Positions 530-36,500 of a stretch of 37,945 bases of DNA are shown in pieces; position 1 is the first letter of the stretch; each line of letters begins with the position of its first letter. The stretch comes from Reclinomonas americana ATCC 50394 (lineage: Eukaryota), in NCBI GenBank assembly GCA_048213135.1, contig PS015084.1, forward strand, positions 61,406 through 99,350, in the 5' to 3' direction. The position numbers and the translations under genes were made by a program. The notes beneath the pieces are model-generated. The model did not search any database and was not told where the DNA came from. It saw nothing but the letters and a program-made list of their open reading frames with translations.

Positions 530-1033
530 CTATGCAGCAGAAGACGGGGCCTCATTCTGCGCAAGAAGTACCTCGGCCACTACGATGCACCGCCCATCGA
601 GCATGCTTCCGTGCAGCTCGCGCACCGCCGCGTCGGCTTCGTCCGGCGTCGTGAACTTGACGATTCTGCACGCGAGGTCAGCGCGAAAAAGACAGAGAGA
701 CAGAGGCAGACAGTGAGTGAGTGAGTGAGTCAGTGACGCACGCGTAACGCAAAGAGTTGCCTTGCTCGTCGCGTTTGAGAGATACTCGAACAACTGTTCC
801 GGTCTCTGTCATGAATGCATGTATGCATGCATGATGAGAAAGGGAAGAGAGTGAGGGGAGAGAGTGAGAGAGACGCAACGTTCCATGTGCTTTCGCAGTG
901 AGTGTTCATCGGTCTTGCCTGCACACACACGCGTGCAGTGAGCGCACGTGTGTTTGAGGAGATAGTGAGCGATCTCACCCGCGAGTTTGGCCACAAAGCA
1001 TCGTGTTGAGCGGAGAGCCTCTGATGTGTTGTC
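530..1033 (-). CDS. RRM (RNA recognition motif) protein, spliced; 5' end unresolved (may extend to ~1350-1450)
   Basis: Exons ~1033-979, 918-880, 805-742 and 665-530 join in frame to RCFVAKLAGKTDEHSLRKHMEQTGTVVRVSLKRDEQGNSLRYAIVKFTTPDEADAAVRELHGSMLDGRCIVV, with RNP2/RNP1-like motifs and a typical RRM end. Confidence 0.8.
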
Positions 1034-1684
1034 TGTGATGCTTGTCATGGCGTGCGCGTGTCGACGTTGAGTCAAAGATGTGGGCAGATTGGTGATTTCC
1101 GGCGAGAAAGAGAAAAGCTGTCGTGTTTGCACGTGTCCGGTTTTGTGGTGGGTTGTGCGACGGGTAAAGTGGCGTCGAGTGCGGGCGATAAAGGTGGTAG
1201 GAGGATGGCTGGAGAGGGGTGCCGGGGTTTGGCTTGAGGCGTCGTGAAACAAAAGCAGATTTCGATATCTCGACGTGCAATAGCAGTCTCACAGTTGGCG
1301 AAGTGGTCGGTTGCTTGACCGGACGTTTGGAAGAAGCGCTGGACTGCTCCACTGTCTCCCTCGATCGCTGCCTCTCACCACTTTACTGATGGTGATCACT
1401 GGTAGAAGTTTGTATGGATAAGTAATGTGGATCCATGGATCCACTCTCTTGGTCATGAAGCAGATGGTGCTGCAGGGCCGCACTGACTCCTCCACCCTCA
1501 GTCGACGTCGCTGTCTCTCTCCTACTGTATGTTTGCGTTCGTTTTGCTGATTCTAGATCTCTCGATCAATCTCCTCTGTCACTCTCACCCCTCTCTCTCT
1601 CTCTCTCTCTCTGACACACACCACAAGCAGTCCCTCGCCTCCAGCAGATTCAGAACGACTTCACTCTCGTTCTCTTCAACACGC

Positions 1685-5324: not shown

Positions 5325-5488
5325 ATGGGCGCTGGGGCGGTGGGAGGCACTGCCGATCGCGACCTTGGCAGCGATGCAGTGTATCTTCGTCACCCAGGTT
5401 CTGTCCTCGATTGCGCTGCGTCGCCACTCACTCCCGGAGTGCCGCAGGTTCGTTGTCCGATCACATTTNNNNNNNNNNNNNNNNNNNN

Positions 5489-5582
<94 letters not shown>

Positions 5583-8237
5583 TCTCAGTCTCTCTCTCTC
5601 TCTCTCACGTACACACGCACAACCACACGCACACCGAGGAAGAAGCGAGAGAGGAGAAGGGAGAGATTGATCGAGAAAGAAAACAGCAAGACGAAATGCA
5701 AGCAAAGGTGACGGAGAGAGAGGGAGAGAGAAGGAGAGAGAGAGAGAGAGAGAGCTCCGCGTCTATCCTTCTCCCTCCTTCTCCTTTCTTCTCCTTCCCT
5801 CTCTCCCTCTCTCCCTTCTCCCTCCCCCTCCCCCTCACTCCCCCTTCTCTCTCCCACAGATGGTGGCCACCACCTGCACCGACCGCGCAGTCCGCATCTT
5901 CTCCGCCGACCTGGGCCGCCTGCTGTGCACCCTGAATGGCCACCGCACTCGTCCCACCTGCGTGGCCTTTTCTCCAACCGACGCCTCCATTCTGGTCTCC
6001 GGCGACGCCGACGGTCACCTAATCGTGTGGAGCCTGCAGGTGCTGTCTACGCAGTTGCGTCGGCGACGATGGAGTGGCAGTGGTGGACGACGAGAGTGGC
6101 AGGTGCAGTCGCGAACAACACACGAGTGCGATCCTGTGAGCGCTGTGGCGGTGTCGCACAGCAATCGCTACGTGGTCAGTGTGACCGAGGAAGGCACGCT
6201 GGAGGTGTGGCTGATGGCCGGCGGCGAGTTGCTGCGTGGCACACGAATCAAGAAGACGGTGGGCTTGCGGTTGCACTCGCTGCGGCCGCGGGTGATGTTT
6301 GCGCCGAGGGATGAGTTTGTGGTCACCAGCTACGAGCTCGGTCACGAGTACGGCGACGCGCAAGTGTGTTGGTGGGAGGTGGACACGTTGAAGCGGGTGC
6401 GGCGCACCGTCGCCAGTGCGCGCCGGGGTAGAGTTGGTGCGATTGTGGTGTCGGCGGACTGTGCGATCATGGCGGCGGCGTATGATGAGAGGATCGCCCT
6501 GCATTGGTTGAGTAGCGGCGGCAGTGGCGGCGGCGGGGATGAGGACCAGCGCAAGCAGCGAAAGTTGAGGGGGCACACAAAGCATGTTAATGTGATGGTG
6601 TTTACGGAGGATGCGCGGTTTTTGGTCAGTGGGGGGAAAGGTGAGCTGAGAGAGTGGGTGGGGGGGAGAGAGGGTGGGAGGGAGAAGGTGGGAGAGGGAG
6701 GGAGTGGATTGGAGGGAGAGAGAGGGAGAGAGAGGAGGGGGAGAGGGTGGGAGAGGGTGGGAGGGAGGGAGAGAGGGAGGGAGAAGGAGAGGGAGAGAGA
6801 GTGAGAGAACAGTTGCGTGGTATCTGGTCAGTGGGGCGGAAGGTGCACTGGTGGTGGAAGTTGTGACGAGAGAGATTTTCCTCGTTGTAGTGCGAGAGAG
6901 AGAGAGACAGTGAGTGAGAGACAGTGAGAGAGAGAGAAAGAATATGTGTGTGGTTTCTGGTTAGTGGGGCGGAAGGTGCACTGGAGGTGGAGGTGGTGAA
7001 GAGAGAGATTTTCCTCGTAGTAGTGAGAGAAAGAGACAGTGAGTGTGAGAGAGAGAGAGAGAACATGTGCGTAGTTTTTGGTCAGTGAGGCGGAAGGTAA
7101 GCTGGAGGTGGAGGAGGTGGCGAGAGGCTTTCTCGTAGTAGTGAGAGAGAGAGAGAGACAGTTGTGTGTGCCTCTCTTCTCTGTATTGATGGAGAGCAGC
7201 GGTGTAATCTGCGCCTGCAACGACCTCTTTATTAATTCTGTTTACCGTTTGATCAGCGTTTTTCATTGTACTGCGTGTCGATGTGTGGGGCACATGTGTG
7301 TGGTTAGCTGTGTGCGGTGGAGAAAAGTTGGTTGGGAAGAGCAGTGGCGTGCGTGTATGTGTTTCTTCTCAAATGACCTTTCTCCCATGACTGAGGATGA
7401 CTTTCTCCTTTTTTTCCTTCTACTTTTGGACGCTCCTCCCCGCACACTGCACTACCCGCGTGTGTTACCTCGCACACCACGAGTGTGCCTGTCTGTTTAT
7501 CCGTCTTGATGTCTTCTCAAACCACTCCCTATTTCTTCACATGATCTTACTCTCTTGCTTTTGGTGGACGAAGGATTACTCTCTCGCAGGTTGAACCACT
7601 CGCGTGTGGTACCTCGCACACCCCGACTGCGTCTGTCTGTCTGTCTATCTGTCTAGCTCTTCCTCACTGTCTCTTTCTCTCTCTGTTTGCCTCTCTCCGT
7701 CTGTGACTGTCTCTCTCTCCTTTTTTGTCTCCCTCTCTGTCTGTCTGCACATCCGGCTTCTTCTTCGTCACATGACTTTGTTCTCGCCCCCCCCCCCCCC
7801 CTCTCCCTTTGTTTTCCCCGCTGCTCCCCGCAGACTGCACCACCCGCGTGTGGTACCTCGCACACCACGAGTGCATCGCCGTCTTCACTGGCCACACGAC
7901 GCCGGTGACCTCCTTGGCCTTGTGTGGCGACGGCCGCATTGTGTGCGCCACCGAGAGTCGCACGTCCTCGGTGTGGCAGTCCGGTGCGTTTTCATGCAAG
8001 CCGGAGCGAGTTGAATACCTCCTCATCAGTCGCGCTACAGGTCCGTGGAACGTCGTTTGGTGCTACCAGCGGGAGGTGTGCGCGGTGGTGCAGTCGCAGC
8101 GATGGTTGCGTGAAATGGCAATGTACAGGCGGGGTACGAGTGAACCGCTGCCGCTGCTGGTGTTGCGGTGCTTTATCGAGGAGGATGCGAGGGTGAGGTT
8201 GTGGAGATTTGCGGTTGGTTGGAGCGGGAGTGAGTGA
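5325..8237 (+). CDS. WD40-repeat protein, ~435 aa, 3 exons
   Basis: Exons 5325-5447, 5860-6640 and 7834-8237 are phase-compatible. GH..W repeats: LNGHRTRPTCVAFSP..LVSGDADGHLIVW, LRGHTKHVNVMVFTEDARFLVSGGKDCTTRVW, FTGHTTPVTSLAL. Intron 1 contains an N gap. Confidence 0.85.
6611..7110 (+). repeat. Degenerate tandem copies of the WD40 exon-2 end and donor site
   Basis: TGGTCAGTGGGG(G/C)G(A/G)AAGGT recurs at ~6623 (true junction), ~6825, ~6958 and ~7079; the intronic copies have ~120-135 bp spacing and similar GA-rich spacers. Confidence 0.8.
7440..7876 (+). repeat. Degenerate tandem copies of the WD40 acceptor and exon-3 start
   Basis: CGCA(G/C)..CAC(C/T)..CGCGTGTG(G/T)TACCTCGCACACC(A/C)CGA at ~7441, ~7585 and ~7829 (true junction). 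Confidence 0.8.
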
Positions 8238-8398
8238 GAGGTGAGTGTGGGGAGGGGGAGGGGAGGGGCAATGATTGTCTGTTCATGTTGTTGCACTTTT
8301 CGGTTATGCAGTCATTCATCGGGGTTCACTGGTGTGTGTACGCATTATTACTTGACACACACACAGATGGCGTGAGATAAAGGAATTCGACGAAGTCA

Positions 8399-9258
8399 CT
8401 AAACTTCCTGGCCCCCCGACGCCGCGGCTGTCGGTGGCATCGACACACTTGTGGGAGGAGGAGTCGGTTGCGGTCTGTTGGTGCCGAATGCCATCCTGAC
8501 GCCGCTCTCGACATTTGGGTCACCTCCGTCGCCAACTTCGTCGAAGCAGCCGGCTGTGATTGAGGTACTTGTGAGTTGACGGGCGGAGCACACTGCAGAG
8601 GCGACTGAAAGCGGTGTTGTACGTACCGCAGTTCATGGTGCTGACGACAAAGTCCAACACCGACGCGGCAATCTGCAAGCCGACGTTGATCCACGACAGC
8701 ACCACCACAATGTGCTCCTTGGAGGCGGCATCTTGGTTGATTCCGAGAGCGCCGGACTTGAACAGGGCAAGCAGCGACGACACTGCGTGCAGTGTGTTCC
8801 AGATGGTTTGCAGAACCGGTGGCCAGTTGTGAATGTTGAGCGGAGTTCGATTGCGGTCATCGCCCATGCCGTTGACGTCGCCGGGTGCGGGGGCGACGGC
8901 TCTGCGGTTTGGTGCCGCGGCAGCAGGAGCATCGCTCGCATTCGCCTTGCCCATGACGATGTTGTCGAGAGGACCGGCAATGAGCGCCGGTAATGCCACG
9001 GAGAACTGGGCGACTACCGCCGAGAAGGTTGTGTCGCCTGGGAAGGCCAGATTGAGCACGTTGACCACGATGGTGGCGATGTAGCCAATGTAGTAGCTCA
9101 CAGTGCCACCGCTGATGCGGTTGCAGCCGCTGCACTTGGCCTGCATGATTTGATTCACACGCACACACACACACACAGTGAGTGAATGCAGTCACAGAAC
9201 CGAACCGAACATACATGGTGTGCTTGTGTGCTCTCCAAACCTTGCTGGTTCCTGCCAT
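8399..9258 (-). CDS. Orphan small multipass membrane protein, paralog A (~228 aa)
   Basis: Exons 9258-9241, 9140-8627 and 8553-8399. Several hydrophobic helices; clear similarity to paralog B with identical intron positions. Confidence 0.8.
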
Positions 9259-9786
9259 GGTGGTCTCTGCGTTCTCGAGTGGGATAATAGATGAGGTTGA
9301 ACGATGACAGGTTAATGTCGGATTTTGACGAGCTGGCGTGGCGTCGCACCGGCTCTCTCCGATTGATTTTGAACGTGCGCCGGCATCCCCGATGTGGACC
9401 CATGTCAAATTCAAACATGACGACCAGCTGGTCACTGTGAAGATGAGAATGGTGAGCTTGGGGAGAGAAAAACGAGAGAAAGAGAGAGAGAGAGACAGAG
9501 AATCGCCGTTTCAGCCGCGGACAAACCCGGCACCACAAAAGCCGTGTTCGGTGATAGCCATTTTTCTGTTGTTGTTGATCGCGACTTTCACTAAAGTGAG
9601 TTCAACAGGAGATCCGAGGTACAGCGGTAGCGAGAGAGGATAGGAAAAAGATACCAGAGAATGCCAGGCAAAGGGCAGTGTGCAGATTAATTATGGTGAC
9701 CGCGCCAATTCGCAGCGTTCTCCAGACTCAGCGGGTAACTGGCTTACGGCGCCGCTCCATGAGGCAGAATGTGAGCAGGTCCCCCA

Positions 9787-13568: not shown

Positions 13569-16500
13569 TTAGAAGGCGAACGCCAGCAGCGCGGCAATGG
13601 CCATCAGCACCACAGTCCACAGCGACGAGGTCGCGGCGAAACCGGCACCACCAGTCGTCGACACACGCAGGTTGGCCGACGGGATCGACTGGCCGAACGA
13701 GTTGACGGCGCGCACATTCACCACGTACGGCGTGCCCGGCTGCAGGTTCGACTGAGTGAACGTGTAGTTGGCGCGCGACGACGACGTCGAGTCGGTGGCG
13801 TTCTTGTAGCCGAAGATGACGTTGCCGCCGTTCTCCGGGAACGTCTGGATCTGGTAGCTGGTGATCAGACCGAGACCAGTGTACACCGGGGTGGAGAAGT
13901 TGACGGTGATCGAGGTGTTGGTGTTGGTGCCCTGAGTCGGGGCGGCCGGAGCGGCAGCCTGGCCCGTCTGGGTCAGAGCGCCCTGAGTCGGCGTGCCAAT
14001 GTTGTTGTTGGCGGTGCCCTGCGAGCCCTGGCCGAGACCGACATTGTTGCCACCGATCAGCACCATGCGGTAGCGCGACGACGGCTTGATGGTCTGGAAC
14101 AGCTGCACGCAAGTGCCGGCAATGGCCGGGTTGGTGCCGCTGCCGAGCGTGGCAGTGTTCATGCCCAGGCCGTCAGCGGCGGCCGGGTTGCCAGTCGACG
14201 CCAGGAAGCGGGTCGTCCACTGCCAGAACACCAGGTAGTAGGTGGCGGCCGCAGTCGTGCCCGAGCCCACCGCAGTCCACGACACGCGGTACTCGTTGGC
14301 GGCGTAGAAGTCCAGCGACGGGGTGCCAGCAGCCGGCACAATGCCAGTCGTGGTCACCGGCGACGCCTGAATGTAGATCGACAGCGAGCTGTTGCCCGTG
14401 CCAATCGAGTTGGTCGCGTTGAGGAAGAAGCGGTAGAAGTTGCCGTTCACCACCGTCACAGACGCCGTGGTGTCGGCAGCGCCCAACGCCACACTCGGGC
14501 TTGTGGTCGTGGCCGACGCACCAGTCAGAGTCTGCGCAGAGATGGCAGTCGACGCGCCAGTGGCAGTCGTCCACGAGAACGCAATCGCCGTGCCAGTGTT
14601 GCTGGTCACCGCAAAGTTGGTCTGGTCGTTCGGCACCTGGCCCGTCAGCACGTTGTTGTTGAGGCCGTTGCCGATGATACCGTCGCCAAAGGTGGCCTGA
14701 GTGGTCGACGTGCCAATGCCGTTAATGCCGCGCACATCGACAAAGTAGTTGGTGGCGTCAGTGAGGCCGCGGATCACAGCCTGCTGCACCGAGGTGGTGT
14801 TCTGGGTCAGCGTGCTGGCCGTAGCCGCGCGCCATGACACCTGCCACTGGTTCACGAAGCCCTGGCCGCCAGTCTCCTGCGGCTGTCCCCAGCTGAGCCA
14901 GATCGAGGTCGAACGCTTGAGCAGAAGGCTCGACGACAGCGACGTGATGCCGCTCGGGCGCTGCGGCGACGTGGCCGTGGTGATGGTGATGGCCGACGCA
15001 GACCAGGCAGTCTGGTAGCCGTTGAACGACGCCACGCCAATGCGGTACTTGGTGTTGGAGTTGAGGCCGTTCACCAGCAGCGACGAGGTGGTCGAGCCGA
15101 GCGAGCCAGTGAACTGGTTCACGAACGAGTCCGGCACGAAGGTGGTCGAGGTGACGTTGGTCAGGTTCTGCACCAGCACCTGCACGCCGACAAAGTTCGC
15201 GAAGCCGTCCGAGGTGGTCAGCGAGTACTGCGTGCCCTGCACAGTCGACGGCGTCGACAGCGTGAAGGTGGCGTAGCCGGAGCCAGTCGTGCCAGCCGAG
15301 CCGCCAGTGGTCAGAGCCGGCAGCGGGTACGGGCGCACAATCGAGTTGGCAATCTGCGGCAGAGTGCCCGACTGAGCACCGTTCTGCGTCGAGGTCACGC
15401 CAGAGTCCGAGCGGGTGTTGGTGGCCTGCACGGCGTAGGTGTACGACTTGCCCGGAATGGTCGGGAAGTTGAAGTTGGTGGTCAGGTTCGTCCACGTGTA
15501 CGTGCGGTTGCAGTTATTGGTGTTCTGCGTCACAATGTAGCCGTTGATCGAGGTGCCACCGATGCCAATCGGCGACGCCCACGAGATGTTGGAGATGGTG
15601 TCCTGGTAGTAGTTGCCAGAGAAGCCCACACCGCCAGCAGAGCCGCCCTCCGAGTTGGCCACACCGCCAACGAGCGTCGGGGCCGCCGGGGCGATCGGAG
15701 CATCGTCTGTGTGGTGGGGGAGAAGGGAGGCGGTGGATGAGATACTGATATTCAAAAGAAGTAGAGGGTCCCCTGTCTATCTCGCATCCTATATAAGTCT
15801 TTCTCTCCCCTCTCCTCTTTCTTTCTCTTCCCTTTCCCTCCCTTCCCGCCCCCCTCCCTTCCTTCCCCCTTTCACGCAACTGGTGTTGTGAGTGGTCTGC
15901 GTCAGCGGGCCAGCAGCCGTGGCCGAGTTGGTCGACGTCGCAGTGGCGTACACTTGGTACGTGTACGACGTGTTGGCCGTCAGAGTTGTGTCGGAAGCGT
16001 AAGTGGCGGTCAGCGCCCAGCCAGTCGGCAGGGTGACAGTGGCCACAGACACCGGGGTCGCGTTGCCCTGGCCGCGGAAAACGGTGAAGCCGGTCACGGC
16101 GTTGGTGCCAAAGTTCTGCGGAATCGTCCACTGCAGGAAGATGTTGTTGAGGCCGTACTGCGTCACGATCAGGTTGGTCGGCGGGCTCGGCACGACACCG
16201 CTGGAAGCCGGAGTGGTGAAGTTGATGGCAGTGCTGAACGCGCACGTCACCGGGTTGGCGGTGGTGCCAGCCGGGTTGAAGGGCGAGGTCGGGAAGGCAA
16301 TCGAGAATTGGTTGCTGGCGCAGATCTGCAGGTTGACCGAGGTGCCAGCCGGCAGGCCGGTCACGTCGATGTAGTAGGTCGACAGGTTGTTGGTCCACGA
16401 AGGCGCAGCGCCGCTGCCGTTGGTGGCCGGGATGGAGCTGGTGTCAATGTTGGTGGCGGTGCCCGCAGTGGCCGCAGTCACCTGCGAGGCGCTCGTGGTC

Positions 16501-19500
16501 GAGTACACCACACGGTAGTTGGTGACGTTCGGGTTGGGCGTCGACAGGTTGCTCTGTGAGGCGCTCGAGGTGGCAGTGTTGGAGCCGCCGACGCTGATCG
16601 GGGTCGAGAAGTTGAGGCGCACGCCAGTCGAGAACAGGCGCGAGTACGCCACGTTGGTGGGCGCAGCCGGCACAGAGCCGTTGTTGTCGGTGGTGCCCTG
16701 GATGGAGCCGGCCGCCGATTGAGTGGCGTTGTTGTTGACAGAGATCTTGGCCTTGACCGTGTACTGCGTGGCAGCCACAAAGTTGTTGGCGGTGCCGCTC
16801 ACAGTGAAGCCGGTGATCTGCGCGTAGAAACCCGAGTTGTACGAGAACAGGCCGTTGAACACGGTGCTGAGGGTGCTGGCGTTGTTGTTGTTAAAAATGG
16901 CGGTCTGGTCAGCGCTGGCGCTGGTCACCGTGTAGGCGACGGACGGTGCGGCAGCAGTGTCGCCCGAGCCAAAGGTGGCCGGGAAGTTGAAGGCGACGAC
17001 AAACGACGTCGAAGTGACCTGGTCCACAGAGCCAGTGTACGGGGCGACCGTGTAGCCAGTCGGCGTGGCCGGCGCACCAGACGCCAGAGTCACCGTCACG
17101 GCTGTGGCATAGTTCAGGGTGCTGTCCGTAGGACCGGTGCCGTTGTAGTAGGCCGCAGCCACAGTGCAGCTGGTGCCAGACAGGCCAGTGACCTTGGTGA
17201 GCACGCGATTGCGTGTCAGACTAGCGGTGTTGGTGTCGGTGATGCCCAAATCACCCAAATTGGCTGCCGAGGTAGCAATCGTGGAGGTTGAGCCGCAGAC
17301 CGACTTGACGTACCACGCGGCAGCGCCAACCACGCCCACATTGCCCGCCGGAGCCTCCCACTCCACCCACGCCGAGGTCGACGTGACGTAGCGCACGGTG
17401 GACGACATTGTCGGCGCCGTCGGCGACACGACAGCGGTCGCCGGGACAGCGCTCGTGGTCAGGGTGCCGCTCCAGGCCGTGGCCGAGCGGTTGACCTGCG
17501 ACTCAGTCCACACGTTGATGGTGTACGAATAGCCGCCAGTGGTGCCGTTGTTCGTTAGAGTGCCAACGGTGTAGCCGCGCCACGTGCCAGCTGAGTTCGC
17601 ATCAGTGGCGGTCACAGTGGTGGGACCAGTGTTGTCGCCGACCACAAACGCGCGATAAGCAGTGGTGCCTGTGACGAAGTTGCTGGTCTGCTGCACAGTC
17701 AGCGAGGTGTTGATGTCCTTGAAGTTGAGAGCGTTGTTGCCGGGGGTCTGCGACGAGAGACCGCCCTGGCCGACGAGGTTAGTCGGCAGCTGCAGCCAGA
17801 TGGTGGCAGAGGTACTGCTGATGTAGTAGATGGCATTGGTGCCGGCGGTGGTGATCGGAGCGCGGGCTGTTCGGAGGGAGAGCAAGTGTGAGCTCACCAA
17901 TGGCGAGAGGAACAGAGCAGGTATAAGAAGCGCAACTGGTGGCGGTCCAGAACGGGGTACCAGACGGCGCGACAGCGGCAGTCAGAGAATTGGTGCTGGC
18001 GTTGTTCACGACGGAGATATTCACCAGCGGGTTGTACTGGCGGCCGGGGAGGAGGCCCGAGAGGGTGACCTGCCAGCCGTCGAGGTGACCCGTGGCGGGC
18101 TGGCTGCTGTTGGCCGCGGTGGTGAGGTTCGCCGTGGGGACAGCGATACCGCGCACAAAGGCAGAGCCAGTGGCAGTGAAGGAGTAGGAGGCGACAGTTG
18201 CGGCGTTGGAGTTGGCCTGGTTGGCGGTGAACGTCGCACCGCCATTCTTCATGGTGATGACGAAGGTCAGCGAGGTGTCGGTAATGTCGACGATGGTGAC
18301 GGAGTCGGGGTTGGAGAGGGCACCAGCGTTGGAGCCGGCGGTGGAGGGAGTAACAGCGGTGTTGACGCTGGTAACGGTGCCGGCAAAAGCAGTGCCGCCA
18401 ACGACATCGTACAATGTGGCCGCAGCGGCGAGGGTGACAGCTCCAGCAGCAGCGTAGCCCGTGCCCTGGGCGTTCACGCCAGTAACGGTAAGGGCGCCGG
18501 CAGCGCTGATCGAGATGTTCAGAGTGGCATTGCCAGCCTGGTTGATGGCTACACCAGTGTAGTTGGAGGACACGCCGTATCCAGAACCCGCAGTGGTCAC
18601 AGCAACGGCAGTGACTGCACCGACACCTTGTGTGGTGAACAGCAGCGCGCCATTGCCCGCCGGGAAGGTGGCGCTACCGCTCGTGCAATTGGGGGTGGCG
18701 GCGATCTTGACAGTATCGTTGTTCGCATAACCAGAGCCAGCAGCGTTACCGATGGCAACTGCGGCAATGGTTCCGTCAGCACCGACAGTCACCGTGAGCG
18801 TAAGAGCATTGTCACCAGCGCCTGTCTGCTTGGTTGTGGCGCAGTTCGCGAAAACCTTGCGGTAGCCAACGCCGGCAGTGCCAGTAGTGACAGCCGCAAT
18901 ACCGCCAGCAGCAGCGTTGGACACAGCGGCGTTGCCCGTGCAGCAATAGAGCGGCGCAGCGGTGCCGCCGCTGACCAGCGTGTAGCTCACGCCGTAGGTG
19001 GTAGTGGCACCAGGAGCAGCCGCACCGCGAATGGCGACAAGGACCTTGGCAGCCGACACGGCAGACCCGGCAGTGTTGCCGTCGAGGTACTGGAAGTCGG
19101 TGGGAGCCGCACCATTGTTGGCTGCGTTGGTACCAGCGACAAAGGTAATGGCGTTCACACCACCAAGCGGCGCAGAGGTGCTGGCGGCAGTCGCCACCAC
19201 ACCACGGTTTTGCGGCGAGCCAGCGTACATCACGACAAAGTTGTTGCCGAGCGTGACAAAGGCGGCAGCACTGGTGACGGCAGAGCCGGAGCGGTTGTAC
19301 CAGATGGCGTTGGTGGGCGCAGTCACACCGAGTGAGGACTGCATGACAACGTTTTGCGAGACGGCGGTGGTGCCAGGGCCAAGGTTCGTCGCCACAAGCG
19401 TCACGGTGCCGGCAGCGGTGGCCGAGAAGGTCATCGTGCCAGTGAGGTCGCTGGCGCCCATCGTCACAGTGCCGCTTGCAAAGCCATTGACGTTGTTCGG

Positions 19501-21543
19501 GTTGCCAATCGTGTAGGGGTTGGTGGAGGCGCTGAAGCCACCAGTGCCAATGACAGTGGCAGCAGCCGTATTCGCCAGGCATTGAATCACCGTGTTGGCG
19601 GTAGTCACCGTCCAGCAAGCCACCAGAACCGGAGCCGGCAGCGTCGGGTTGGTAGCGGCAGCAGACAATGTGAGTGTCAGCTGAGAGGCAGTGTCGAGAG
19701 CGAGCGTGCCGTCACCAGAGTCGTTGACAGCCGTCACGCGGATGACGTAGGCGCTGATGTTGGTCGTCGTCAGCTTCGAGATCAAAACGTGACCGCCAGA
19801 CACACGGCCAAAGGTCTTGTCGACGACAGGCGTGCCAGTGAACGTGGCGCCAAAGGCGTTGTACAGCGCAGTGCCGCCGTTGGCCGACGCCGCAGCCTCC
19901 ACCTTGAAGCTGCTGATGATACTGCCGCCAATTCGCTGCGGTGAAGTCCAAGTGACCAGACCGCCGTCAGAGGCAGGGGCAACGTTGGCGGTGGCGGCAG
20001 CTGAGGTCGGGAGTGTCTGGGCGAAAGTAGCGGTCTTGTCCGGAGACTGCTTGCCGTCCTGGGTGGTCACCGTGGCGGTCTGCGAGAGAAGAGGAGAGAG
20101 GAATGTGATGTGAGCAAGCTGTTTCACTAACAATACAGAAAATCACGAAAAACAAAGACGCAACAGAGCTCCACGGGCCAAAGCCCCACTGGCCCACAGC
20201 GCGAGCGCGCACCACGTAGCCAGTGCTCGGCAGCAGAATGCTGGTCGCGGCATCGGCACCAGTGCCAGACACCACGCACGTCTGCAGGGAGAACGGGCTT
20301 GAGTTGAACGGGATGGTGGCCGCATTGGCGCCGCCAGTGCCGACAGTGGTCTCAGTGTAGAAGGTCACCGGAGTCCACACCGTCAACGAGCTGCCAGTCG
20401 AGCTGCGGATCTGGACCTGGAAGAACGGAGTCTGCAGCTGGTTGTAGTTGTTGGTGTTGCCCGTCATGCCGGAGCCCGTCTGACCGAGCTTGATCGGCGG
20501 CGAGAACGACAGCACGAACGAGGTGGCCGACGTGTAGCTGATGGCCAGGTTGGTCGGCGTGCGCGGGGTACCGCCGAGCGGCACCGTCACGACCTGCGAC
20601 GAGGTGCGGACGCCCTCACCGTACAGGTTGACCGAGTAGGCCTGTTGGAGAGGAGATGAGTGGGGGATGGAGGGGAGGGAGGAGGAAAAGGAGAAGAGAA
20701 GACACGCAACAGCGATGGTGTACTGCACGCCCTCCTGAATGTTCTGGTCAAAGTAACGCAGAATCATGCCGTAGCAGCCGTTGCCGCCAGTGGCAGGGCC
20801 GCCATTGGCCGCAATGGCGTTGACCGACGAGCACTGTTGGTGGAGGGGAGAGGAAAGGAGAGAGAGGGTGAGCAGAGGAGAGGAGAGGGACAGCGGATGG
20901 AGGAGCAGGCAAGCAGACGCAACAGTGTACTTGGTGGTGCCAGTTGTGCTGGCCACGTCGACACCAAACTCGGTGGGCGGCGCGTTGCCCTGGTTGATGG
21001 GGGTCGTCCAGTTGACCCAGATGGCCGACTGAGAGCCGCTCGGGGCGGAGGTGTCGAGGTCTGCCAAAGGAGAGGGAGGGAGAGAGAGGGAGAAGTGAGG
21101 AGGAATGCACGCATCAAACAGAGAGAGAGAGAGAGAGATAGATTGTGCAAGGCACGCACCATCCTCGCCCACAGCCTTGATGATCTGGAATTGCTCCGGC
21201 GCGTTAGAGCTGCCAGGGGCAAAAGTGGTGGTCTGGGCGTCTGCACATCGTTGTCGAGAATGGGTGAGTGGGACAGATCATGCAGGCGAGCAGAGAGGCA
21301 CTGTCACTCAAATATAATACACGAATCCACTGCCACGCACGCACGCAGGAGATGCACACAACAGAGTCACAAGAGACTTACATGCACATAGACACGCACA
21401 CACACACACACACACTAAAGAGGGGGAGAGAGAGAGTGACATCGCGCGTGTCATCACACACACGCACACAAACACGCAAACTCACCAGCCAAGAGGACTG
21501 CGCCGAGGAGCACGAGGCACACGATGGAGAGGAGCCAACGCAT
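13569..21543 (-). CDS. Large secreted fibronectin type III repeat surface glycoprotein, likely GPI-anchored, ~2380 aa, 8 exons
   Basis: Exons 21543-21486, 21240-21160, 21060-20924, 20833-20711, 20641-20165, 20079-17937, 17866-15881 and 15706-13569 total 7143 nt in one frame. Signal peptide MRWLLSIVCLVLLGAVLLA; many FN3 motifs (e.g. NLQPGTPYVVNVRAVNSFGQS, YVVRARAVGQWGFGPWS); terminal hydrophobic tail LWTVVLMAIAALLAFAF with no cytosolic part. Confidence 0.92.
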
Positions 21544-24160: not shown

Positions 24161-24716
24161 GTTGCTGCCAGTGCTGCTGCAGGCTCCTCCTCTTCCTCCT
24201 CTTCCTCCTCGCGCGCAGTGTTTCCCGGTGTGGAGTGGCAGGCCAGCTCCAAGTCGTTTGTCTTGTCGATTCGCGTCACTCCCAAGGCCGATGTCACAGA
24301 GATTGTGCGTGCAAGAAGACAACTCACCAGCGCATCATGCATTTTCTCATTGTGCGTCTTGATGGAAAAAGGTTGGTCTCGAGGAAGACGAGATTCGTGT
24401 GCGTGTGGCTGCGGTGCCCGACAAGGGTCAAGCCAACAAGGAGCTGGTCAGTGGACTCTTGTTATCTGCACGTACTGCTGGTGTCTTCCTCTCATTCCAC
24501 TCTCGTTCCGCGCAGTGCGATCATCTTGCCAAGCGACTCGGCGTGCCAAAGTCCAAGTCGCGTCTTCTTTTCGTCGTATCGCTCTTTGTTTCAACTGTCC
24601 ACTCACCGCTTGTCAGTGTGACCATTGTGTCGGGCGACACGGCTCGCTCCAAGCGCGTCAGTGTGACCGGCTGTGACGAGGAGCGACTGGGGAGCGTGCT
24701 CGGATTCAGCGGCTGA
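24161..24716 (+). CDS. DUF167/YggU (UPF0235) family protein; start lost in the upstream gap
   Basis: Exons ~24161-24304, 24372-24446, 24516-24556 and 24617-24716 give LSIRVTPKADVTEIVGLEEDEIRVRVAAVPDKGQANKELCDHLAKRLGVPKSNVTIVSGDTARSKRVSV. Confidence 0.9.
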
Positions 24717-27232: not shown

Positions 27233-27281
<49 letters not shown>

Positions 27282-28838
27282 ATGAACGAAAGAAAGCAAG
27301 AAGGAAGAGAGAGAGAGAGAGACTGAGCAAGGACTGAGAATGGAAGAGTACAAGGGGAGTCTCTCGAGCTTCCAGACACGATTATCTCTCTGGCCACCAA
27401 TCCGCACCAGCGCATCGAGATCCACATCGTCCTCAAAATCCGATCCATCCTCCTCCTCGTCCTCTTCGCCGTCGCCACCAGCCGCTGCTTTCGGTTGCGA
27501 TGCGACGGGAGAGGTCTTCTTTGCTGCCGCACTCACGGCTTTGACGATTGGAGGTGGAGGCGGAGGTGGAGTGGGGGATCTGTGAGGGAAAGATGAGAGA
27601 GAAGGAGCGTGTGAGAAGCGAGAGAGCAGGGAATGAGGGAGAGAGAGGGAGAGACGAAGGAAAGCGAGTGAGAAGCGAGAGAGCATGGAGTGAGAGCGCT
27701 GAGGGAGAGAAAGGGAGAGCGTGTGTGAGAGAAAGGAGGGAGTGAGAGAGCTGAGTGAACAGAGAGTGTGTGGATGCGTGAGTGTGTGAGGAATGCCAAG
27801 CAGGGAACGGAGAGGGGAGGTATAAGAGCGAGAGAAAGAGAAAGATCGTGCGTTGTGAGTGAACAGAAAAGCAGAGAGGGTGTGTGCAAGAAGAGTTGAA
27901 AAGCAAGTGAGTGTGTGAGAGAGAGAGGAAGAGAGGGAGGGACAGGCGGAGCGAAAGAGAAAGGGCGTGCTTTGTGAGTGAACAGAAAAGCAGAGAGCTT
28001 GTGAGTTGAAAGAATGCGCGTGCGAGAGAGCGAGAGAAAGAGAGTGTGTGAGTGTGGAAGTGAGGGAGTGTGTGCAGAGCCGAGACGACAACAAGCAGTT
28101 CTCTTCTTCCCTCTCCCCCTCCCTCCTCCCCCTCCCTCCTCCTCCTCCTCCTCCNNNNNNNNNNNNNNNNNNNNNNNNNNNNNNNNNNNNNNNNNNNNNN
28201 NNNNNNNNNNNNNNNNNNNNNNNNNNNNNNNNNNNNNNNNNNNNNNNNNNNNNNNNNNNNNNNNNNNNNNNNNNNNNNNNNNNNNNNNNNNNNNNNNNNN
28301 NNNNNNNNNNNNNNNNNNNNNNNNNNNNNNNNNNNNNNNNNNNNNNNNNNNNNNNNNNNNNNNNNNNNNNNNNNNNNNNNNNNNNNNNNNNNNNNNNNNN
28401 NNNNNNNNNNNNNNNNNNNNNNNNNNNNNNNNNNNNNNNNNNNNNNNNNNNNNNNNNNNNNNNNNNNNNNNNNNNNNNNNNNNNNNNNNNNNNNNNNNNN
28501 NNNNNNNNNNNNNNNNNNNNNNNNNNNNNNNNNNNNNNNNNNNNNNNNNNNNNNNNNNNNNNNNNNNNNNNNNNNNNNNNNNNNNNNNNNNNNNNNNNNN
28601 NNNNNNNNNNNNNNNNNNNNNNNNNNNCCCTCCCTCCCCCCCCCCCTCCCCTCTCTCTCTCCCCTCTCCAACGCAACAACTCATCCTCCTCCTCCTCATC
28701 ATCGCGAATATCCAACTCGAAATCCTCATCCACATCCAAACCATCGACGCTGTCAAGAGAGAAAGACACAAGAAGAAGAAGAAGTCGTGTGAGAATGGAG
28801 AGCAAGAATCCAGCTTATCTTTTCTCGCGCAACTCCAT
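24768..28838 (-). CDS. ELMO-domain protein (ELMOD3-like Arf/Arl GAP), ~570-590 aa
   Basis: Exons 28838-28834, 28749-28678, 27579-27408, 26548-26408, 26348-25778 (possible extra 60-nt intron 26136-26077), 25707-25598, 25530-24992 and 24930-24768. GAP motif HWMTIGFQGTDPATDLRTG with the Arg retained, then FPMACVGINIT. Two introns contain gaps, so hidden exons are possible. Confidence 0.88.
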
Positions 28839-28886
28839 GATTACAACGTTCTTCTTTTCCCGCGCAAATCGCTTTTAATTGTGATT

Positions 28887-29225: not shown

Positions 29226-29278
<53 letters not shown>

Positions 29279-30553
29279 NNNNNNNNNNNNNNNNNNNNCC
29301 ACCGGATCGCCGTATGGTGGTGGCGGTGGTACCGAGCACGAGTTGGCCATGCGACGCTTGCAGCAGCGTGTGGAGGAGTTGGAGCAAGAGAACGGATTTT
29401 TGCGCGACCAGTACGCCGTGGTGGTGAGACGAACATTCTCTTTCTCACTCTCTCTCTCCCCTCTCCCTCACCCTCTCCCTATTTCGCTCTCCCTCTCCTT
29501 CCCCGTCTCTTTCTCCTTCTCCTCTCCTCCCTCTCCCTCTACCTCTCCCTCACCCTCTCCCTCTACCTCTCCCTCACCCTCTCCCGCTTTCCCTCTCCCT
29601 CTCCCTTTCCCTTCTCCCTTCTCCCTCTTTCCCTCTCCCCCCTGCCCCTGCCCCTCCCTCCCTCCCCACCCCTTATCCTTGCAGTGCGCGGAGCGCGACG
29701 AGTGTCGTGAACAACTCGAGGTGCTGCAGCGCGGCTGCGAGCGGCTGTCGCGGCGCCCACTCCCCAACGAGAGTGAGCTGGTGCAGGAGATGGCCGCTCT
29801 CCGACGCGTGCTCGAGGAGACGCGTGAGCTGCAGCGTGTGCGGCGCGAATCACGTGGGCCACCGTCGCACCCACCCGGTACCACCATTGACAACAGCGAG
29901 GCGCGTGAGCTCCGCCTCCGAGTGCATCGTCTGGTCAAGAGTCTGCGCAAGGAGAAGGCCGTAATCGAGCGGAACATGGATGTTGCGTGGGGAGGATGGG
30001 CGACGAGGGCCTGTCTAGCGTGTGTGTGTGTGTGTGCGTGTGTGTGTGTGTGTGCGGCGGGGGTGGGGGTGGGGGTGGGGGTGGGTGTGTGGGTGTGTGG
30101 GTGTGAGTGCGTGTTTGTGTTTGTGTGCATGTGTATGTGTGTTTGTACATTGCGTGCCATGCTGTGATCTCTCTCTTCTTCCACCTCTCTCTCACACACT
30201 CTCTCTCCTTGTCGCAGATTGTGCTGGCGGAGAACCTGGAAATGCGTGCACAGTTGGCACACATGCGTATCGTTGAGGAGAGCCGATCGCGTGCACGCCG
30301 ACGCGTTGTGCGCGCGCGCAGCCGGTCACCACTGCGATCTACGTCGCCCGCTGGCGCCGGTACTTTGGTGCTGTCTTCCCAGCACCAGCAGCAGCAGCAG
30401 CATCAGCAAGCTCGTCACCCGCGTAGACGGCAGACAAGTCGGACGCCATCGCGTTCTCGATCGGCATCGCGAGGAGCCACAGTGCCGTCGGCGCCGAAAA
30501 CCGCGTGGCGAGCCGAGGCCTGGTACAACCCGCTTCCTTGGGTGGAGTCGTGA
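28887..30553 (+). CDS. Hypothetical coiled-coil protein
   Basis: Exons 28887-29085, ~29299-29423 (acceptor in a gap), 29685-29981 and 30218-30553. E/R/L/Q heptad-like stretches (RRLQQRVEELEQENGFLRDQ) and an RS-rich tail. Confidence 0.75.
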
Positions 30554-30581
30554 GGTGCGTTGATGTTTATTGCCTTTTTTT

Positions 30582-33219
30582 CTACAACCCATGCTCCAAA
30601 TCCCCGGCAAAATGATTCGGTAATTGTGCAGGTGCTGCTGCGAGTGCGTTAACTGGCGGTTGGTCACCGACCGCACCTTCTCTGTCATCGTTGCCGTTGT
30701 TTTGGTTGTTGCGGTCACCGCCGGCACCGTCGTCTTGGCGATGGTGGTCTCCTCCGCCGCCGGCTTCTCCGCGGGAGTTGCGGAAAGTGTTCCTGTCCTT
30801 TAGTGGTATATGCTGAAATAGGGCGTACAGGAAGACGCCAAGCATCTGCAGATTGGTCAGGTAGAATTTGACTACGAGAGGGGTGGCCGTGGAGTTGCCT
30901 GTTTCCGCGAAAGAGTGAGCTCGGGTGATGAATGAAGCTGCTATTCTAGTTGATGCGCGCTCACCAGCCTCGGTAACAAAGTGGAGTTTGGGAGTCAACT
31001 TGTCGGCCATGGTGCGACCGAGGCGGAACCACATGGCTGTGAGACGAACCATTTCCATCAGTGCGCACACGGAGACAGCGATTGGCGATGTCGACATGCA
31101 ACGAACCGCAAAAGAAGATGGACGCAAAGAAGACAGTAAAGACCCACGACAACCATGGGCGTTTGCCTCGTCGCGATTGGCGAATGTTAGTTGTGGAGAT
31201 GGCGGGATCTTCGTCGACTTCGCCAAAGAGTCTGGTCGACTGCTCGGCCACACGACTGCAAACAGTGACAAGGAAATGAGTTTCGCAGCACTTGCACTTC
31301 CAAACGGTGCATCGACTCACTCCAAATTCTTGTACACCATCCACAGCACGAGCGGAAAGAAGATTTGGTTAACGAAGATGTATGCCGATGTGCCGCCACG
31401 GACAGAGTCGATACCGCGCACGCCGGGCACCGGGGAAAACCAGAACATGATGTTGGAAAACGTGGCGCATTCTTGCGCAATCCACGAGATCGTGTAAAAG
31501 CCGTCACTGGCAAATGTCCAACGCATGGAGAACTGCACACGAGGTAAGGAACAATGTGAGCCTCTCGACAAGAGATCCCACTCACCTCCTCGTGGCGTGT
31601 GATGCGGGCGCGAGCGAGTGGCCAGACAAGACCAAGGGCACCAGCAGTGGAAACAAGTGGAATAGTAAGACGCGCCCAGCCCCGAGTCAACACGCCAAAC
31701 ACCTCCTCTGCGTCACAATGGGTGCTCGTGAATGCCAGGTCAAGAGAGAGAATGACTGATGTTGCTCACCATTGTTGACGGCCGCCATGGCACCTGCCAA
31801 CACGAACAGTCCGAAAATCACCAATGCCCACAACCACATGGACTTCTTCCTCAAGTTCGGATCAGCGGCTGCAAGGTCGTTCGATGAGGTGGGTCGAGCA
31901 GCTGCCGACGCAGCATGCGGCATCTCGCGCATTTCAACTGCCACGTGCTGCGGCGCGGCAGGCTCGACGATCAGCCCTCCCACCCCTTGTGGCGGGTGAG
32001 ATTGCTCCTCTGGTGGCGCATCCACGTCCTCCATCTCAACGTCGGCACTCAACATAAGCCTGTTGTGCTCCATTTCCTCCTCATTCGGCTGCGATGGCGA
32101 GCCCTCGAAGGCACGGAGAATGCCGAAGAAGCTCTGCAGGTGAAAGATGCCTCCGAAGAGCACCAGCAGGCGGTACCACTCCTCGCGAGTGCCCTCGATG
32201 TTGTGTAATAGCCCCCAGCTGTGTACCAGAACGAGCGGGCGAGTGAGATGGAAGACGAGGAGGACGAAGGACTCTGCGCATCGCAACTTGATGATATCAT
32301 TGCGGAGAACGAGCACCACTCCCAGCGAGCCATGAAAGCCGATGAGAACCACCAAGGCAGCATAGTAGAAGCGGCCTCGTCTGCAGTGGTCGCATGGTCC
32401 GTGCTCCACCACCATCCTGGTGGGATCGTGAGGATCCGGCTGTGGCCCCGGTCTCGTTGGGCACACTGGCGCCGTCCGTGAACACAGCGGGTACGTGACG
32501 GGGCGTCCGCGAATGTTGTTCAGCACAATGAACCACGACGCGCTGCAGGAGAATACATCGAACACGCTCAGTCCAACGCCCAGCACGAACGCCGCAGCGC
32601 CGCCTGTGCTGGCGCACACGACCATTTGCAGGATCATGGCAGCGATCTCCAGCATGCATGTGGCAACCAAAATGACCTCGTACATCACTGCCTCGTACAT
32701 CACCACCAAAAGGAAGCGTTCATCCAGCGATACCTTGGTACGCTTCTGCAGCCGCGGAGAGAGAAAGAGATAAACAGTGAGAAGATGATTTGTCCGCCAT
32801 TTCGCGCAGTGTGTGCACTCTTGCAGAAGTCTCACCCACAGCGCCAACAAGGCGGCAAACGTGCATATCATGGCCAGCAGGCCGGCGACGTACACAAACG
32901 GCTGCGGGTCGGCAAAGATGGCAGGCAAGAAACTGGTCGTTGAGTCGTCCGCGTTCATCGCTGCTCCATCGCTGGTGCCATATGCCACCACTGAGAAGTG
33001 GCGAAGGTGAGCTGGCAGTGAACCAACGCGCACACACGCAAACACACACATGCTTGCGCACGACCACGCCACACCTCCCATGAGCAACGGAACCGGAACA
33101 CCCAGCAAGAACGGCATCATGCTGCGTAAGCTGAAGCGCCAGCACCGTCCGCAGGTCATTTGCGGTTCATTTTGCACCGCTCGATCGAGCGCAACATGTT
33201 GCGTCGCCGCCGCCGCCAT
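30582..33219 (-). CDS. Orphan multipass membrane protein, multi-exon
   Basis: Consecutive minus-strand ORF segments are joined by short phase-compatible GT-AG introns (e.g. ALW|KRTK, VNN|EEVFG, HEE|FSMRW). About ten hydrophobic segments and a G/D/N-rich tail ending at TAG 30582. No family recognised. Confidence 0.7.
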
Positions 33220-33563
33220 GCGAAAGATTGTTGTCAGAATTTCCTGTCACAACCCGGCAACGGGACAAAAAATGCGTCGACACCCATCGTCGGGTGGCAT
33301 GTTTCACGAACTTAACGGGATGGATGGCGCTGCATGTTCGTGTGTACATTTAGCGGACTGATACAACCGCAGGATTCGTACGACGATTTCTGCAGTCTCG
33401 TGCATGCATTCATGATCCGACGTGGCCCGACACGTGCCCAACGCCAAGCCCGAGTTCCATGAGGCAACCGCGCACACACTCGACACCACGTATCCGCAGT
33501 TCCGCGAGCTCTTCAGCAGCAGCCGACCAGTGGCGCAGCTCGTTCCCAACCGCCGACCAAGCA

Positions 33564-36500
33564 CTACCTCGACGCCGATGCGCCGCGCTCTTCCATCGCC
33601 AGGCACCGCTGGTAGCACGCGTACAGTTCCTCTGCAGCCTCCTCCGTGGACGGCCGCTCATCTCGTCGTTGCTGAAAACAAGTGAAACGTGGAAAACTTG
33701 TCAGATGGCGCGACACAAATGGCAGAAATAGCGACGGAATTGCTCACCCAGCAGCGAGAGATCAGCACGCCGAGACCAGCAGGAAGCCGTCCCAACTCCT
33801 CCACGGTTGCAGCCCTCCGTCCGTCAATGATGCGGTCACGAATCTGAGGGCTGAATGAGCAACGGAGCACCAGCCGAGCGGTGCGGGAACAGCACACAAA
33901 CGTAACCAGCATGTCGGCCTGTGGACCATCTGGAATGTCGGCGAACGGGATAGACCGCGTGCAAGCACACCACAGGATGGTGGCCAGAACGAAGACCTCA
34001 GATCGGCGGTTGTAGACCAGCGACTGAAATGCATAGTAAGAGAACCATACGCACGTCCACACAGAGGCGGAAAAGGTGTCTTCTCACCAGCGGATCTTCG
34101 ACGAGGTCCTCTTCGGGGCACGTTGCACAGTTCTCTGGGCACCAAAATCGCGCAGTGCCAACTCTCTCCATAAACGACTGCTGCGTGAGACTGGCCGACA
34201 CTGTGGACAGCCCAAAGTCGCCGAGCTTGGCCACTGGCAGCCGTGGATCCGTCACATCCAGGAAGACATCTGTTCCGTGGAGTGTCAACAGAGATCTAAC
34301 AACACAGGCAGGTCACATGCGATGTAACTTGCGGTCTTCAAGTCGCGGTGGAGTAGCCGCTTTGAATGCACAAACGCCAAGGCTTGGCACACTTGCCACA
34401 CCACGTGCACACGCTGGTTGGAATGCATAAGAAGCCTTCCTGTCGTGCAGAAGAACCCCCAACGCAAACATACCGTGGAGAGCGGGACGTCGCGGAACTC
34501 ATTGAGCCACTGCTCCAAATTCAGCGGATGATCGCCACCAACTGACTCCAGCACGAGTCCCAGTCCTTCTCTCCCACGATGACTCATGCCATAGCATCGA
34601 ACAATGTGCGGATGCCACTCGTCCACACCACTGTGCATCACTCGCTGTCAGCGCCCCCACACGAGAGTCGCAAACACATCTCCACGCAACTGCAAGTACG
34701 TCATAACCACCGCTTCCTTTCTACATGTCTCCTCGGGTGCATTAACACCCCAGAAACTCTTCAACACTCTCGTGGTCACCGTCCCGTTCGGCGACCGTAC
34801 ATTGACGAGACGCACAGCAGAACGAGCTGGCCAAACCACTACAATCAGCACCAAAGCTACAGTTGGCGCAACATGCATAGCATCACTCAACTGTTAGGGA
34901 AAAGACATGCATCGTCTCTCTCGATCACGTTCTCGCTCGGAATCAAGGGGATGGAGGCCACCAGCGTGGTCCAGTTGCCGTCGAGCAGCTCCACGATCGC
35001 ATTCCGCGGTCGGTATTCTGCAGGCAAACATGAGTCCTTAACTGCGTGAGCATGGCACTGAGACAGGAGTCATTTGCGCACCGACAGGGATGTCGTCGAA
35101 GCATACAAGGTCGTCAGCGTTGCCAAACATCTCCACACATGCGCGCAACGCTCGATTGGCGTCGTTGTAAAAGTCACGGGTGAACGGCAGATCGCCTTTT
35201 GCCAAGTGCGAGATCGAATTTCGCAGGCTGCGCACAGACTTTATCAGCTGTCGCTTCTCCTGCACCCGCAACAAATGACAAGAAAAGTGAGAGATATCAA
35301 TGGATACAATTCAGTCGGCATCGAACATACCACGGATTCTGGCAGCAGGTCGACAACACAGATGGCAAGCACGTCCTTCCGCGACTCTGGGTGAAGGCGC
35401 ACCTCAGCGTTGCCCAGCGACTCATCCGGGACCGACATGAGCACAAAGTAGGCCTTCAGCAGCAGCTTGATGATCAAAGCCAAATCGAGAGCTGGCGTTG
35501 GTTCTCCAGCCTGGAGGGCGGCTGCAAACCGCGTAAAATGCCCGCTGCTGTCGGCGTCGACAAAGAGGTAACGCTTGCCGCGATTATACTTTCTCCATTT
35601 GCAATATCTGCACACGTGAATGACGATCAACGAAAAACAAACCTCACAGCGAGCAACCACTCCAGGTACCAACCGATTGTTCGTGCGTCCATCCACCAGC
35701 TTGGCGAATTCCAAGCCCGCACACTCGGCTCGTGCCATGAGAGATTCAAAGAGGCGCTGTAACACAGGACCAACGACCTCCTGCAATCGGTGTCGGAGCA
35801 CATCTCTGCGTCTCCGATAGCTGCGCCAACAGTTATTACAAGGGGCATATCTACACAGATCATTCCTCACTACTGGCACGCACCACGCTGCCACATCGTC
35901 ACTGCCGTCGTCGACTGTGGTCACACAAACAGGTGCATGAGCAGTGCGTGCACCACTATCAAATCGGGCGACGCTCACCGGTATCCTTGACGGCGTCAAT
36001 CATGCGCACATCGAGATCCATCCTGGTGAGCCTCTCATAGATACGTCGCATGGACGGCCGAGTTTCTACTGTGGCGTCGGCCACGGTGCCGTAGGCGCCA
36101 GCGCAAAGTGGTAACAGGCACTCCGGGATCAGTTTCCGCAGGCAGATCGGCGCATTCGTTACCACCGATGGCAGGAGGCTGCGGAATGCCTTCGCTATCG
36201 CATCCGCGGTCCGATTCTCACAATTCTGTTCTACCAGCCACTGCGGCACCAGCTGCCACATGTTGACATGTGCAAAAATGAAGAGTAGCAACAGACCAAA
36301 CTGGAAGACATCGGTCCGCATGATGTCAGTGATATCGGCAACCTGCAATACACGCTCGGCGTGAGTGACGACGAGAATAGTCTCCTCAGGCCGGCGGCAC
36401 TCTGCCAAATCTGTGCATTCACACTCTCACCTGACCTCGTTCCTCCAGGCGCAACAGTTCCGGATCCAGAAGGATCATGTGCTCCTTGGAGGCGTCATTG

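Follow-up and report, generated by a model that had tools for sequence, protein, structure and literature searches.

What marks the start of an intron in Reclinomonas americana ATCC 50394, and must the exon before it end in G? We sought to answer this question for one stretch of contig PS015084.1 (positions 61,406 to 99,350 of the forward strand; hereafter the window), a piece of draft eukaryotic scaffold of 37,945 bases with seven N runs and a local GC content of 44-63% in 2-kb windows, in which introns beginning with GTTGCG lie among introns with more familiar 5′ splice sites (donors) such as G|GTGCGT, the bar being the exon-intron boundary. As judged from the gene structures, GTTGCG(T) is a genuine 5′ splice site and a major donor class within the window, and it is not found after exons that end in G. 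As to its cause, we give a probability of roughly 0.5 to the reading in which these sites represent the local G|GTGCGT read one base out of register, likely via an adapted U1 small nuclear RNA (snRNA).

Genes were read in three-frame displays and anchored by Pfam matches (Pkinase, WD40, fn3, DUF167, and ELMO_CED12 at 24991-25542). The last RRM exon matched RRM_1 43-69 with 24.4 bits, fn3 profile matches were found at the ends of the large FN3 exons, and two small kinase exons matched Pkinase 102-126 and 137-168; when single short exons were submitted to Pfam, there was no match for the kinase exons flanking 34690 or for two small FN3 exons. We curated 38 introns by coordinate, each running from GT to AG and joining open frames, with reading frame, domain continuity and length as criteria. 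A change of frame, a stop codon or domain continuity requires 33 of the 38 (tiers 1-2), and the other five are in-frame or motif-only (tier 3). The junctions are those inferred from reading frames and domains, and class frequencies refer to this 38-kb window alone. Among the tier 1-2 introns, 23 of 33 measure 59-76 nucleotides (nt), the shortest being 53 nt, and the acceptor is CAG in 30; introns beginning with GTTGCG resemble the others in the window. With its curated introns taken out, the FN3 gene, five of whose six introns start with GTTGCG, reads as a single stop-free frame of 2373 codons. The nine tier 1-2 members of the class are as follows.

806..879, minus strand: intron of 74 nt in the RRM gene, donor C|GTTGCGT, phase 1; strong support
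20834..20923, minus strand: intron of 90 nt in the FN3 gene, donor T|GTTGCGT, phase 0, in frame and stop-free; good support
20642..20710, minus strand: intron of 69 nt in the FN3 gene, donor T|GTTGCGT, phase 0; strong support
20080..20164, minus strand: intron of 85 nt in the FN3 gene, donor T|GTTGCGT, phase 0, frame change required; good support
17867..17936, minus strand: intron of 70 nt in the FN3 gene, donor A|GTTGCGC, phase 1, frame change required; good support
15707..15880, minus strand: intron of 174 nt in the FN3 gene, donor A|GTTGCGT, phase 1; good support
29982..30217, plus strand: intron of 236 nt in a coiled-coil gene, donor T|GTTGCGT, phase 0; good support
34631..34690, minus strand: intron of 60 nt in a protein kinase gene, donor A|GTTGCGT, phase 2; good support
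24557..24616, plus strand: intron of 60 nt in the DUF167/YggU gene, variant donor A|GTCGCGT, phase 2; strong support

Splicing at 879 yields an RRM with 43 residues before RNP1, compared with 42 in Pfam RRM_1. In the FN3 gene, the intron at 20834..20923 is 82% pyrimidine, ends in CAG and interrupts the F-strand of an FN3 repeat, and splicing at the GT of 20710 restores the Y-x7-N-x2-G spacing seen in five intron-free repeats of the same protein. The exon upstream of 20164 ends at position 78 of the 84 in the fn3 profile. At 17936, the only canonical alternative, G|GTGAGC at 17897, would leave an intron of 31 nt, as against the shortest curated length of 53 nt, while at 15880 an in-frame stop follows, a frame change is required, and the upstream exon carries fn3 1-75 near its end. 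The plus-strand intron at 29982..30217 joins two heptad-like open reading frames (ORFs) lying in different frames, and contains a GT microsatellite and then a CT tract before its CAG. Splicing at 34690 links the alpha-C region of the kinase to a stretch matching Pkinase 56-126; an alternative donor, GTACTT, is located at 34699, nine bases upstream and in the same phase. At 24557, splicing preserves the C-terminal KS-x-V-x-I-x-x-G region of the family, and the neighbouring exon matches DUF167 24-45.

The donors of the 33 tier 1-2 introns comprise 15 different hexamers, of which GTTGCG is the commonest with eight occurrences; GTGAGA, GTGCGT and GTGAGC occur four times each, GTGAGT and GTATGT twice each, and nine others, including GTCGCG, once each. 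Counted over the entire window, the hexamer shows no enrichment, with 34 copies on both strands compared with 29.2 ± 5.5 in shuffled sequences. In ten gene spans, however, it accounts for 20 of the 1510 sense-strand GTNNNN sites as against 8 of the 33 intron starts (binomial 1e-8). We also enumerated all frame-compatible GT or GC donors and AG acceptors for the RRM junction and the five FN3 junctions, which offered 3 to 10 donors each, and GTTGCG was among them at all six. Seven of the 12 GTTGCGT heptamers on the two strands are tier 1-2 donors, an eighth being the weak site at 28677. The 20 sense-strand copies of GTTGCG divide into eight tier 1-2 donors, three tier 3 donors, two copies inside introns and seven elsewhere; for comparison, donor use accounts for 6 of the 49 GTGCG[TC] copies on the sense strand and for 11 of the 36 GTGAG[ACT] copies.

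The last exon base is G at none of the nine class donors (eight GTTGCG plus GTCGCG), whereas it is G at 21 of the 24 other donors (Fisher 5.7e-6), and the contrast persists when the class is reduced to six independent events, namely RRM, two FN3, coiled-coil, kinase and DUF167 (Fisher 1.4e-4). The first-pass annotation had presented GTTGCG(T) as a major class of donors, seen only where the exon does not end in G, and within the window, at 8-9 of 33 introns, this description holds. Its companion statement, that ordinary donors mostly follow G with exceptions including 741 and 24305, is likewise borne out, with 34328 as a third exception; the three introns concerned are the following.

666..741, minus strand: ordinary-class intron with donor C|GTGCGT and no G at -1, placed by continuity of the RRM RNP1
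24305..24371, plus strand: ordinary-class intron with donor T|GTGCGT and no G at -1, placed by DUF167 continuity
34270..34328, minus strand: intron with donor A|GTTACA, another donor with T at +3 after a non-G base

At the last of these, splicing creates the HRDLK-x-x-N kinase motif between the exons matching Pkinase 102-126 and 137-168. T at +3 occurs in 11 of the 33 donors overall, and GTT donors other than GTTGCG do follow G (GTTTGG at 9240 and GTTGAC at 25777); the non-G rule therefore concerns the GCG(T) class and not every donor with T at +3.

Aligned with an offset of one base, the two classes share G-N-T-G-C-G-T. In the ordinary class N is G and cleavage falls after the first G; in the new class N is T and cleavage falls before the first G. 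Position +5 is G in 21 of 24 ordinary donors, while all nine class donors have C at +5 and G at +6, so that at the inferred junctions the consensus G stands where it is expected for a shifted-register (+1) U2-type 5′ splice site. The exon side is displaced as well. Under a +1 shift, position -1 of the class corresponds to position -2 of ordinary donors, where G is present in only 3 of 24, and a complete lack of G at nine sites is then expected (0.875^9 = 0.30), which it is not under an unshifted or bulged reading (0.125^9 = 7e-9). Moreover, the -2 base is C in 6 of 8 class sites, where it would face G11 of U1 in the shifted frame, as against 7 of 24 at ordinary -3 (p = 0.04). We therefore favour a +1 shift over a bulge, on the indirect support given by the missing -1 G, the displacement of G from +5 to +6 and the enrichment of C at -2.

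How such a site might be read can be outlined as follows. The G with which the exon ends in the ordinary class would open the intron in the GTTGCG class; after that G, T would take the place of G, and the UGCGU core would follow. The snRNA contacts that normally read G at -1 and +5 (C9 and C4 of U1, and later U6) would then meet G at +1 and +6, and cleavage would go to the only GU present.

Which snRNA could do this was approached by duplex folding against the standard U1 5′ end, taken as printed in PMC4856993. The shifted register was the best fold at three of the eight GTTGCG sites, namely those with CA|GUUGCG, while the other five formed no meaningful duplex (+0.5 to -3.3 kcal/mol). With pairing near nil, the standard U1 can hardly explain seven conserved bases. 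Because its 5′ end would pair so poorly, we infer that the U1 of this organism, or a second U1 copy, likely has a 5′ end adapted to GUGCGU. By way of illustration, and by analogy with Mastigamoeba, we folded the sites against a hypothetical U1 of this kind; the outcome is a prediction, not a result. Its mean pairing would be -7.6 kcal/mol over all nine class sites and -7.9 for ordinary donors, and all eight GTTGCG sites would pair from +3 to +6 in the shifted frame, seven of them on to +7. A further step, by which a U1 (or two variants) tracking GUGCGU routinely binds in two registers and about a quarter of introns are cut one nucleotide upstream of where U1 points, we regard as doubtful.

A number of observations weigh against the shifted-register reading. 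The introns were curated manually, by the author of the analysis. Five of the eight GTTGCG donors belong to one gene, FN3, and at least seven sense-strand GTTGCG copies are not donors. With the standard U1, the mean predicted pairing energy is -1.2 kcal/mol over the nine class donors as against -6.7 over the 24 ordinary ones, and the +1 G is left unpaired at four of the nine (four of the eight GTTGCG sites). When set against the hypothetical adapted U1, the GTCGCG variant forms a better duplex bulged than shifted. Scans for Rfam families and tRNAs returned nothing in the window, and thus neither U1 nor U6 within it. In the parts of 10.1101/2022.06.08.495308 drawn upon here, Mamiellales, with GYGCGY donors, and Thecamonas, with C at +4, keep a standard U1. 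Finally, three of the sites first put forward are weak, their support being the motif.

28750..28833, minus strand: possible intron of 84 nt directly after ATGGA, donor A|GTTGCGC; weak, with the motif and a CAG acceptor in its favour
28672..28677, minus strand: possible donor T|GTTGCGT; weak, by motif only, with the acceptor beyond a 473-N gap into which the frame stays open
32219..32287, minus strand: possible in-frame intron of 69 nt in a membrane-protein ORF, donor A|GTTGCGA; ambiguous

The first two lie in low-complexity acidic sequence that borders the 473-N gap, with the ELMO domain (24991-25542) some 3 kb further downstream. The third is stop-free, a multiple of three and pyrimidine-rich within an ORF of 519 codons, and could equally be coding. 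All 12 sites of the first-pass annotation, 11 with GTTGCG and one with GTCGCG, do lie at their assigned coordinates and strands, each after A, C or T. Its appeal to frame and domain continuity stands for 879, 20923, 20710, 20164, 17936, 15880, 29982 and 34690, can be extended to the variant at 24557, and falls away for 28833 and 28677, which are motif-only; 32287, which it had called probable, has the motif and is best described as ambiguous.

The near-zero pairing of the class with the standard U1 would also fit a different arrangement, in which U1 pairing has little part in the recognition of these real donors, the introns being defined instead by their short length, their branch site and CAG acceptor, by U6/U5 or by a protein factor, with GCGT read by a factor other than U1 and the one-base offset tolerated at catalysis. 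Two GTGCGT donors that do not follow G are weak as well (-1.4 and -2.2 kcal/mol) and are nevertheless used, and the introns are short and uniform, 30 of the 33 ending in CAG. The seven conserved bases, however, imply a sequence-specific reader, and the exon-side signal, C at -2 in 6 of 8 class sites, points to positions 10-11 of U1. We consider this arrangement unlikely.

A bulge is quite improbable. It would have real donors recognised by a standard U1, the extra T at +2/+3 bulging from the duplex while -1 still faces C9. Such a bulge +2/+3 register does exist in human cells, according to the portions of PMC4856993 consulted, and with the hypothetical adapted U1 a bulged fold is obtained for the one GTCGCG site. 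A bulge would nonetheless keep the benefit of a G at -1, which is present at 0 of 9 class sites and 21 of 24 ordinary ones, and with the standard U1 the bulged register is the best fold at none of the eight GTTGCG sites. Canonical pairing at -1, +1 and +2 with one base bulged is thus not what these sites display. Of the shifted or bulged register that had been proposed at first, the one-base displacement has indirect support, with G moved from +5 to +6 and the exon side displaced along with it, and the bulge is disfavoured; the scope then given, a whole lineage, extrapolates from 38 kb.

Very improbable, too, is a start at the GC three bases downstream (GTT|GCGT), which would turn these into GC-AG introns preceded by a conserved GTT at the exon end. 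Of the six enumerated junctions, all five in FN3 stay in frame with this start, as apparently do those at the kinase, DUF167 and coiled-coil sites, and at such sites GT and GC starts cannot be told apart. At 879, however, the GC donor leads to TAG with the only good acceptor, and at 20710 both the GC alternative, which is off by one residue, and the unspliced form break the Y-x7-N-x2-G spacing. A conserved exonic GTT in all three phases would in any case be implausible.

We attach the same very low probability to common descent of the shared start, through copies of a mobile “introner” or through duplication of FN3 repeats. Five of the eight sites are indeed in the FN3 gene, with 20923 and 20710 in the same strand of two FN3 repeats, but the same start is found in four other unrelated genes, and in 28 pairwise comparisons the interiors of the introns were no more alike than shuffled controls (z at most 2.2). 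The intron bodies being unrelated, the shared start does not come from a mobile intron or a recent duplication. Least credible of all are chance, mis-modelled genes or one-base assembly errors in GTGCGT, since the hexamer's overall count, although not above chance in a draft assembly with seven N runs, goes with a positional binomial of 1e-8 and a place among the candidates at 6 of 6 junctions, and an inserted T would not explain the loss of G at -1.

As for minor introns of the U12 type, which have the donor /RTATCCTT and a rigid branch site, we rejected them as a candidate: none of the 38 donor sequences resembles this motif.

Some further features of the window concern splicing and gene prediction. 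Several CT-rich introns are multiples of three and stop-free in frame because they are CT-rich (20642-20923, 32746-32835 and 26077-26136, minus strand), and ORF-based gene calling would run through them. Low-complexity sequence of the (GA)n/(CT)n, (CA)n and GGGA types is very abundant throughout the window, both within introns and in spacers, and all seven N runs adjoin tracts of this kind. Two GTTGCGT heptamers on sense strands lie in contexts of their own.

6054..6060, plus strand: A|GTTGCGT in the WD40 gene, unusable as a donor, with no right-phase acceptor beyond 27 nt
8105..8111, plus strand: the only sense-strand GTTGCGT after G, apparently not a donor; the sole phase-compatible acceptor found by eye is 38 nt downstream

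The first of these may sit 13 nt inside an in-frame intron beginning with G|GTGCTG: at 6041-6112 (plus strand) there is a possible in-frame intron of 66 or 72 nt (G|GTGCTG...CAG) which would shorten an over-long linker between WD40 repeats. Another intron of the WD40 gene, at 6641-7833 (plus strand; 1193 nt), contains microsatellites of the GGGA type and a 121-bp unit present in about two tandem copies. This unit is a decayed copy of the end of the preceding exon together with its donor, and decayed copies of the start of the next exon are found at about 7445 and 7590.

In the ELMO gene, the intron at 25529-25597 (minus strand) has an ambiguous donor, either G|GTTCGG or G|GTGTGC, 5 nt apart, with acceptors 2 nt apart, and a GTGCGT just downstream fits no acceptor phase. 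When the ELMO exon was compared with 1.84 billion cluster representatives, the best identity was 48% and the top-scoring match reached 46%. The names of the 20 top clusters are ELMOD3-like proteins of animals, Andalucia, Mesostigma and Nonionella, together with unnamed metagenome proteins. This ceiling on identity (24991-25542, minus strand) suggests that public protein sets contain next to nothing from the source lineage. Word-indexed protein searches gave no homologue of an FN3 exon or the kinase ORF, the ORF of 519 amino acids had no usable Atlas match, and scans of metagenome contigs revealed no relatives of the WD40 and FN3 exons.

The FN3 gene (13572-21277, minus strand) encodes a giant surface protein rich in Thr, Ser, Ala, Gly and Asn, at least 2373 residues long, with several FN3 domains and a C-terminal hydrophobic anchor. 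Two tandem paralogous genes for membrane proteins, without a Pfam match, are located at 8523-9270 and 9747-10770 (minus strand); both have first exons of six codons, and their homologous first introns begin with different donors (G|GTTTGG and G|GTGGGG). In the kinase region (33570-36900, minus strand), a kinase-like segment without the usual catalytic motifs (36900-35900) precedes the segment matching Pkinase on the same strand; together they may form a single gene with at least 12 exons. No Pfam match was obtained for the upstream segment.

What the class would mean depends on how far the proposed register holds. Shifted and bulged U1 registers were known before in a small minority of human splice sites, where they were established with minigenes and suppressor U1s. 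If one such register does serve about a quarter of introns here, the organism would provide a natural system for studying what determines the cleavage site once U1 has left and to what extent snRNAs and splice signals evolve together, and uncoupling of U1 binding from cleavage would be a genome-wide feature rather than a rare human oddity. On the practical side, gene finders with standard donor models would mis-predict many genes here, an example being five of the six introns of the large FN3 gene.

Comparison with known systems can begin with the mammals, whose shifted-register 5′ splice sites were reportedly described by Roca and Krainer in 2009, the bulge +2/+3 register of human sites being ascribed to Roca et al. 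in 2012. Among the papers listed by our full-text literature search, none concerns a GTTGCG/GUUGCG donor consensus, as judged by title and opening of the abstract; logos in figures are not searchable, and an earlier description in some lineage may exist. At the mammalian shifted sites, as excerpted from PMC4856993, U1 pairs one position downstream, which uncouples its binding from the cleavage site. In the same excerpts, bulge +2/+3 accounts for 68 predicted sites, 54 after curation, among 201,541 human donors, and the validated noncanonical registers together make up 1.5% of these donors. That survey, as far as the excerpts go, dropped sites with G at +5 as canonical; the GTTGCG class has no G at +5 and differs from them in this respect.

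Adaptation of U1 to an unusual donor has precedents in Entamoeba, with GUUUGU(U) donors and a U1 bearing ACAAAC, and in Mastigamoeba, with GUACGU donors and a U1 bearing ACGUAC (10.1101/2022.06.08.495308, in part). On that partial view, U1 5′ ends in these amoebae track an atypical consensus, and U at +3 as a normal donor feature is common to lineages of this type and the present one. They have one near-universal consensus in the ordinary register, whereas here two classes, one base apart, coexist, the atypical one occupying 8-9 of 33 introns among 15 hexamers. With its G|GTGCGT or G|GTGAGN donors, the ordinary class of the window is similar to the consensus sequences given for Mamiellales and Thecamonas in the same source, the text of which, logos not covered, mentions no GTTGCG class in them.

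The closest resemblances are with the human sites. The human bulge +2/+3 sites share with those of the window an extra U just after GU, followed by an otherwise normal donor, but they keep the pairing of G at -1, which is absent here. The mammalian shifted sites also cleave at GU, have U at +3 and carry at +6 the G usually found at +5. They are, however, a handful, with a GUUAAGU-type core pairing well with the standard U1, while the class described here accounts for roughly one in four introns of the window and has a GCGU core whose pairing with the standard U1 is poor.

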